NCBI RefSeq assembly: GCF_003334355.1
Contig: NZ_QOWP01000003.1
Source: Escherichia coli
GTDB taxonomy: Bacteria > Pseudomonadota > Gammaproteobacteria > Enterobacterales > Enterobacteriaceae
DNA: 64,000 bases
Strand: one strand, 5' to 3'
In this document: positions 63,796 to 64,000 of the stretch, one piece after another
Layout: each line of letters opens with the position of its first letter
Numbering within the stretch: position 1 is the first letter of the stretch
Translations under genes and position numbers: made by a program
Notes under the pieces: model-generated
The model's input: the letters and a program-made list of their open reading frames with translations, nothing else
What the model was told of the DNA's origin: nothing
Databases searched by the model: none

Positions 63796-63825
63796 GCCGC
63801 CCCCTATCGTGCTATCGTGCCTGCG

Positions 63826-63869
63826 TAAGCTGGATAAGACGCGCCAGCGTCGCATCCGGCATTTTTTTC
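63826..63869. repeat. REP-like palindromic unit followed by T7, immediately downstream of yjaB
   Basis: gctggataagacgcgccagcgtcgcatccggc + ttttttt. Confidence 0.6.
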
Positions 63870-63880
63870 TGCGCCAATGC

Positions 63881-64000
63881 AAAAAGGCCATCCTGACGGA
63901 TGGCCTTTCGCTTTATTTGATGCCTGGCAGTTTATGGCGGGCGTCCTGCCCGCCACCCTCCGGGCCGTTGCTTCGCAACGTTCAAATCCGCTCCCGGCGG
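63881..64000 (-). terminator. 3' flank of an rrn operon on the minus strand: terminator hairpin (aggccatcc/ggatggcct, 63884..63908) plus a 5S-3'-end-like fragment and the T1-T2-type spacer; the 5S gene itself lies beyond the window
   Basis: Reverse complement reads ...GCCATAAACTGCCAGGCATCAAATAAAGCGAAAGGCCATCCGTCAGGATGGCCTTTTTG, the characteristic rrn distal terminator arrangement. Confidence 0.7.

Follow-up and report, generated by a model that had tools for sequence, protein, structure and literature searches.

Layout of the junction between yjaB and rrnE

The window (the whole stretch of E. coli DNA that was analysed, 64,000 nucleotides) ends in the distal region of the rRNA operon rrnE, next to yjaB. 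In the MG1655 record, the genes of this region are ordered rrfE-yjaA (+)-yjaB (-)-metA-aceBAK-arpA, and the window corresponds to the reverse of K-12 4,277,834-4,213,685. The K-12 order rrfE-yjaA-yjaB-metA, which an earlier reading of this DNA made without database searches (the sequence-only reading) had given, agrees with the record. As shown in Table 1, yjaB is followed in the window by a short spacer, a repetitive extragenic palindrome (REP) unit, a T-run, a GC-rich hairpin and part of an rrn terminator region. The stop codon of yjaB is TAA (63793-63795).

Table 1. Coordinates of the features at and near the end of the window
Feature	Position	Strand	Remark
arpA, short 524-aa allele	55404-56978	+	Clermont amplicon unaffected
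metA (homoserine O-succinyltransferase)	62266-63195	-	309-aa ORF; collinear with K-12 metA; flanking gene
yjaB (GNAT lysine acetyltransferase)	63352-63795	+	Intact, 147 aa; NCBIfam NF007807, 275 bits
Allele-specific spacer, 29 nt	63796-63824		CTATCGTG in tandem duplicate (63804-63811 and 63812-63819)
REP unit	63825-63860	-	REP consensus, 0 mismatches to the degenerate pattern
T7 run after the REP stem	63862-63868	+	Possible terminator tail for yjaB, judged from the sequence
GC-rich hairpin, AAAGGCCATCC-TGAC-GGATGGCCTTT	63883-63908	both	T2-type distal terminator of rrnE on the minus strand; terminator-like for yjaB on the plus strand
21-nt direct-repeat copy of the 5S 3' end plus trailer, AACTGCCAGGCATCAAATAAA ("pseudo-5S")	63912-63932	-	Separates T1 from T2
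rrn T1-T2 spacer, rrnB/rrnA type	63933-64000	-	Incomplete, as the window stops within it; T1 and the true rrfE are outside

yjaA was searched for in several ways. Searches of the 64 kb with yjaA DNA (blastn, word size 7) and with YjaA (tblastn) gave chance matches only (best tblastn E = 2), and the four Clermont yjaA primers, which are exact in K-12, had no site in the window at up to 4 mismatches. K-12 YjaA scores 177 bits against NCBIfam NF041448 (YjaA family stress response protein), and an ORF of this type is not present between the 5S gene and yjaB in the window. The program-made ORF list contained only antisense or frame-shifted mechanical ORFs in the spacer. Thus, both the absence of yjaA between yjaB and the rrn terminator and the absence of an ORF in the spacer, as the sequence-only reading had put it, were borne out by these searches. 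In Rfam searches of the junction, the 5S and 23S genes were the only hits, and both lie beyond the window; matches to naRNA4 (REP-derived), RsmY and BSnc120 were sub-threshold and were treated as noise, that to naRNA4 being weak.

The continuation of the locus could be followed in strain 720632, which is 100% identical to the last 701 bp of the window. In this strain, rrfE starts 294 bp past the yjaB stop codon, and beyond it come the genes for 23S rRNA, tRNA-Glu and 16S rRNA, and then purH. yjaA is missing there, so the possibility that the gene lies at the same locus just beyond the window did not materialize: only rrnE and then purH were found. The 21-nt repeat has a period of 168 bp in strain 720632. 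Therefore, the tandem T1-T2 architecture of rrn operons is present, with T2, the repeat and part of the spacer in the window, and T1 and the 5S gene known from strain 720632. The distance from the yjaB stop codon to the hairpin is 87 nt, close to the 85 bp or so given before. The rrn terminator hairpin of the sequence-only reading is present; however, it is the distal (T2-type) one of two terminators and does not lie directly beside the 5S gene.

The REP unit forms a stem-loop (-21.3 kcal/mol, z -4.8) from an imperfect palindrome. At least 18 further copies are present in the window, and the unit is a member of a multi-copy family. Its earlier description as REP-like can be made firmer, because it fits the consensus without mismatch. 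Compared with known REP/BIME elements, it agrees in consensus, stem and multiple copies, and differs in being a single unit rather than a BIME pair. A BIME array was observed elsewhere in the window: the aceA-aceK spacer (58709-59055) holds 3.5 tandem copies of a 98-bp BIME unit (two inverted REPs) with 97% match. No such array was detectable in K-12, where the spacer is 182 bp, and strain 720632 has one unit fewer; the array behaves like a variable-number tandem repeat.

rrnE and yjaB are convergent on the REP unit and the hairpin. On the rrn-sense (minus) strand the hairpin has a folding energy of -25.5 kcal/mol (z -4.4) and is followed by TTTTTG. U-rich tails are present on both strands of the hairpin, and the T7 run follows the REP stem. 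From this arrangement, we infer that the rRNA and yjaB transcripts, which run towards each other, may both be terminated here, with the hairpin and the REP stem plus T-run working as a bidirectional pair of terminators.

Comparison of the junction with K-12 and with other rrn flanks

Up to a breakpoint at 63790-63795 (+), K-12 and the window do not differ in yjaB or in the region upstream of it (100% identity). The alignment with K-12 stops at 63790, within the last two codons of yjaB, which are GAA TAA in the window (C-terminus YVGE) and GCG TAG in K-12 (C-terminus YVGA). Homology to K-12 picks up again only at the 3' end of the 5S gene. Between these breakpoints, K-12 has about 520 bp, made up of the yjaA/yjaB terminator, yjaA and a private rrnE hairpin, whereas the window type has 294 bp of unrelated DNA. 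A simple deletion of yjaA was considered and rejected, as the K-12 and window DNA between the yjaB tail and the 5S gene could not be aligned with each other. Because the 87 nt between yjaB and the hairpin have no counterpart in K-12, the yjaA-less state is a replacement, not an excision, and its breakpoints are fixed. The sequence-only reading had described a missing gene of about 380 bp; yjaA is indeed absent, but this is not a plain absence, since about 520 bp have been swapped for 294 bp of unrelated DNA.

E. coli O157:H7 has a third form of the region. This form is 116 bp long and consists of the same spacer (with one CTATCGTG), the REP unit and the hairpin, which stands directly against the 5S gene. 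Adding to the O157 type a 168-bp T1 module, with the 21-nt direct repeat at its borders, gives the window type. The 29-nt spacer is confined to the yjaA-less allele, the O157 form having the single copy of CTATCGTG. As a separate observation, E. coli HH45 (NZ_CP116411.1) carries a frameshifted and truncated yjaA pseudogene of 89.7% identity between rrfE and yjaB. This was the sole genome in the 80-90% identity band for yjaA, and it represents a third state of the locus with respect to this gene.

The DNA next to yjaB resembles the flanks of other rrn operons. Positions 63825-64000 of the window are 96% identical to the distal flank of K-12 rrnA, REP unit included; the REP unit is homologous to the one that adjoins mobB there. 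The K-12 rrnA flank (rrfA-T1-T2-REP-mobB) is like the window through the REP unit, and homology stops at the outer REP edge, where mobB follows in rrnA and the 29-nt spacer and yjaB follow here. The K-12 rrnB and rrnD flanks share the T1-spacer-T2 part with the window, through T2. The rrnB-type T1-T2 region, which is also that of rrnA and rrnD, has the same T2 hairpin and 21-nt 5S repeat, and its T1-T2 spacer is about 96% identical in the distal regions of K-12 rrnA, rrnB and rrnD. The K-12 rrnG flank shares the single hairpin and a partial REP, and K-12 rrnC and rrnH, which end in tRNA genes, have nothing in common with the window flank. In contrast to the window, where the T1-T2 module follows rrnE, K-12 rrnE has a single unrelated hairpin (CCCCGGTCC...GGCCGGGG) and then yjaA. 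This pattern of module homology fits a concerted evolution of rrn operons that would reach past the 5S gene.

The T2-type hairpin is the same at K-12 rrnA, rrnB and rrnG. Its loop (63894-63897), of 4 to 6 nt, is inverted between alleles: on the same strand, the window has CTGACG, whereas O157 rrnE and K-12 rrnA and rrnG have CGTCAG. The stem is unchanged; read in the rrn sense, the loop is CGTCAG in the window and CTGACG in rrnB, rrnA and O157 rrnE.

Frequency, lineage and age of the yjaA-less junction

Among 5426 complete E. coli genomes, yjaA is present in 2594, and yjaB is joined to rrnE without yjaA in 2806. The two numbers add up to 5400, which is consistent with alternative states when the totals, not the single genomes, are compared. 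In all sampled members of the 2806, the junction aligned as one uninterrupted piece with 92-100% identity; the exact T1-T2 form of the window occurs in 829 of them. In the alignment of the junction to genomes of both kinds, which the sequence-only reading had proposed, K-12 breaks at 63790, and the sampled yjaA-negative genomes run through. Because of the uninterrupted alignment and the complementary counts, the yjaA-less junction can be regarded as one widespread allele, and it is this common allele of the rrnE-distal/yjaB junction in which the window ends. YjaA is annotated as a stress response protein (MG1655 record; NF041448). The source strain would simply be without this protein. Because about half of all E. 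coli are without YjaA, its absence has no evident consequence for viability.

The closest relatives of the source were judged from the last 25 kb of the window. The best matches are clinical isolates (99.9%); among named genomes, E. coli B, REL606, BL21(DE3), C and ATCC 8739 come nearest, all with 99.7% identity and the same junction. In ClermonTyping (Table S2 of PMC6113867), REL606 and ATCC 8739 are (+ - - -), phylogroup A, both in vitro and in silico. The yjaA and arpA primer sequences that we used agree with the EzClermont table (PMC7656184). The sequence-only reading was right that yjaA is a presence/absence phylotyping marker. The yjaA amplicon (yjaA.1b/2b, 211 bp) is absent from the window and from the locus in strain 720632. 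The presence of arpA, also claimed from the sequence, was verified: the AceK.f/ArpA1.r amplicon is 400 bp (56958-57357), with exact primers at 57338-57357 (-) and 56958-56977 (+). For chuA and TspE4.C2, no primer sites occur in the 64-kb window, and both loci lie outside it. Thus, compared with the yjaA-negative state of the Clermont scheme (profile + ? - ?), the window is identical for the marker, being arpA-positive and yjaA-negative. The 25-kb similarity and the typed relatives make it most probable that the DNA comes from a strain of phylogroup A without yjaA, similar to B, REL606, C and Crooks. The suggestion that the source is not of a K-12-type lineage therefore holds for the marker but probably not for the phylogroup, because the nearest named relatives, REL606 and ATCC 8739, are typed A like K-12.

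The window as a whole is a mosaic with respect to K-12. Among its 4-kb blocks, identity reaches 100% at 32-36 kb and at 44-48 kb and is 96-99% in others, with 96.2% at 16-20 kb; recombination tracts on a phylogroup A background typically look like this. The arpA gene of the window is without 612 bp of the K-12 gene (K-12 4,220,736-4,221,347; 728 aa), in frame, with the breakpoint at 56543/56544. In 24 sampled members of 4096 arpA-bearing genomes, the long and short forms made up about half each; in PGAP annotation, the long form goes under the name espL4, and the short one is entered as a "ShET2/EspL2 family" protein.

Next, the age of the two states was considered. YjaA was searched for in one genome per species with exact peptide words; a species of Escherichia that was not returned is therefore no evidence of yjaA loss. 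Sixteen loci were returned, from Pectobacterium, Brenneria, Samsonia, Kosakonia, Phytobacter, Superficieibacter, Franconibacter, Entomohabitans and Enterobacter sp. At all 16, yjaA lies beside metA, with yjaB between them or not, and at 11 of the 16 a 5S sequence is directly upstream of yjaA (blastn), mostly at the end of a contig in an rrn operon. A Salmonella salamae-like contig and Citrobacter youngae have the same 5S-yjaA-(yjaB)-metA order. Because this synteny is conserved, yjaA at this site is judged to be ancestral for the Enterobacterales, and the yjaA-less state derived.

The yjaA-less form was also found outside E. coli. An E. albertii-like contig is yjaA-less, has the same REP unit as the window, and its yjaB also has GAA before the stop codon. 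In S. bongori, yjaB is followed by REPs, a hairpin, pseudo-5S, the T1-T2 spacer and the 5S gene, and in C. rodentium by REPs, a hairpin and the 5S gene; at this site, yjaA is absent from both. The occurrence of the yjaA-less form in these three suggests that the polymorphism is old. However, the spacers beside yjaB in S. bongori and C. rodentium could not be aligned with the E. coli spacer, and their REP and hairpin modules could represent convergent independent losses instead of one old allele. As for the ancestral stop context of yjaB (GAA TAA or GCG TAG), the C-termini of distant outgroups are very diverged, and GAA was seen only in the E. albertii-like contig.

A second trace of the yjaA-less junction lies beside rrnG. 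The K-12 rrnG flank (NC_000913.3 2,725,925-2,726,069; positions 426-570 of the extracted locus L028) is a diverged copy of this junction and consists of the last 60 bp or so of yjaB, TAA, a partial REP, the T-run, the hairpin and the 5S gene. It differs from the window in being a gene fragment only, in having a single terminator, in its identity of about 90%, and in being without exactly 43 nt between the direct repeats ATAAGCCGC and ATAAGACGC. The yjaB-derived piece is yfiS: YfiS reads MEVGKLGKPYPLLNLAYVGV and then stop, against SEVDDLGKPYPLLNLAYVGE and then stop for the YjaB tail (tblastn E = 4e-9). Thus yfiS, annotated as encoding a small protein of 20 aa, duplicates the final 20 codons of yjaB and has gained a new start codon along with a Shine-Dalgarno sequence. 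The "AYVG" tail is specific to Escherichia. At least 80% of a kgtP-yfiS-rrfG query aligned in 4540 genomes, and in the other sampled rows the yfiS part was covered in all but one; the rrnG/yfiS arrangement is apparently present in essentially all 5426 complete E. coli genomes. Because the rrnG copy is a fragment without yjaA, the donor would have been a yjaA-less rrnE flank that predates the diversification of E. coli. K-12, though yjaA-positive, therefore seems to carry a fossil of the yjaA-less allele at rrnG. Among the 15 best-ranked of 85 literature matches, none mentioned both yfiS and yjaB, and no earlier account of the junction anatomy was found in a search that largely left out older subscription papers.

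These data bear on the direction of the change. If yjaA were an insertion acquired by K-12/B2-type lineages, the yjaA-less state would be primitive, as its occurrence in the E. albertii-like contig, S. bongori and C. rodentium might suggest. The rrnG fossil makes the yjaA-less junction at least as old as E. coli, so that the yjaA-positive state could be a re-import within Escherichia. However, the order 5S-yjaA-(yjaB)-metA-aceB is kept in the first seven genera named above, in C. youngae and in the Salmonella salamae-like contig, and no close foreign donor was found, the next best YjaA being 72% identical. We therefore consider an acquisition of yjaA improbable, and at the level of the order the idea that yjaA was inserted in K-12 was rejected by the conserved synteny.

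A separate observation was made in E. whittamii Sa2BVA5 (NZ_JACSQI010000001.1). Over about 1.2 kb, its rrfE-yjaA-yjaB region matches K-12 at 99-100% identity, whereas for metA and aceB the figure is about 92%. Such a pattern looks like an import of a yjaA-positive haplotype from a K-12-like E. coli donor, anchored in the rrn operon.

Origin of the yjaA-less allele and its meaning

Taking these results together, we think it very probable that the window ends in a common yjaA-negative allele of the rrnE-distal/yjaB junction, that this allele stems from an old replacement, and that the source is a yjaA-negative phylogroup A strain. According to the mechanism that we propose, 5S-yjaA-(yjaB)-metA would be the deep ancestral arrangement of the Enterobacterales, and the yjaA-less allele would have arisen long before E. 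coli diversified. Most likely, judging from the homologies of the flanks, a gene conversion among rrn operons extended beyond the 5S gene and thereby brought a foreign distal module to the rrnE flank. In this event, yjaA, the site's own terminators and the K-12-type last two codons of yjaB (about 520 bp) would have been swapped for a distal module of the rrnA/rrnB/rrnD type. The outer join (REP, 29-nt spacer, yjaB stop codon) has no homology that explains the resolution of the event. Both alleles would then have been passed on vertically and by homologous recombination, and this spread would be the reason why phylogroup A contains both.

A recent deletion of yjaA, private to the source strain or its close relatives, is a far weaker explanation. 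The complete identity of yjaB with K-12 up to the breakpoint could suggest a young event on a K-12-like background. However, the 87 nt without a K-12 counterpart indicate replacement, the same junction (92-100% identity) is shared by the 2806 genomes, O157:H7 among them, and by the E. albertii-like contig, and a diverged copy of it is fixed beside rrnG. We regard such a deletion as very unlikely. Collapsed or mis-joined rrn repeats, by which yjaA would have been lost from the assembly, can be practically dismissed: mis-assembly is a classic problem at rrn operons and REP elements, and the last part of the window is a repeat-rich rrn distal region, but the junction recurs base for base in many independent complete genomes, including REL606, BL21(DE3), C and ATCC 8739, and REL606 and ATCC 8739 are also yjaA-negative by wet-lab PCR (PMC6113867).

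The old replacement by an rrn distal module can be extended to a broader scheme, which we offer tentatively and lean slightly against. In this scheme, the presence or absence of yjaA would not reflect a deletion within E. coli but an ancient, species-crossing polymorphism of two rrnE-distal haplotypes. The yjaA-less haplotype would have been built by rrn-rrn conversion running past the end of the operon and copied likewise to rrnG before the radiation of E. coli, where the 20-codon yjaB tail would have become the translated YfiS. Recombination anchored in rrnE would shuffle the haplotypes between phylogroups and also between species, as in E. whittamii Sa2BVA5.

The presence or absence of yjaA has been a routine typing marker since 2000, and the yjaA-negative phylogroup A strains REL606, BL21 and ATCC 8739 are textbook cases. 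The observation from which this analysis started is thus correct but ordinary: it concerns an already known polymorphism, the negative state of a standard typing marker. A yjaA-negative result does not mean "unlike K-12", because both alleles occur within phylogroup A. Because the negative allele is a replacement whose breakpoints are fixed, its junction sequence allows positive typing in place of a missing PCR product. Furthermore, the age of the polymorphism and its movement by recombination would explain why the marker follows phylogeny imperfectly.

The anatomy added here (the breakpoints, the rrnA-like module, the age of the allele and the rrnG/YfiS fossil) is a modest curiosity, not a new kind of system. 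The derivation of the rrnG flank and YfiS from the yjaA-less yjaB junction has modest relevance to the concerted evolution of rrn operons and to the birth of small proteins. If the broader scheme is true, genes next to rRNA operons would be reshaped by the concerted evolution of these operons, and some would even owe their origin to it.
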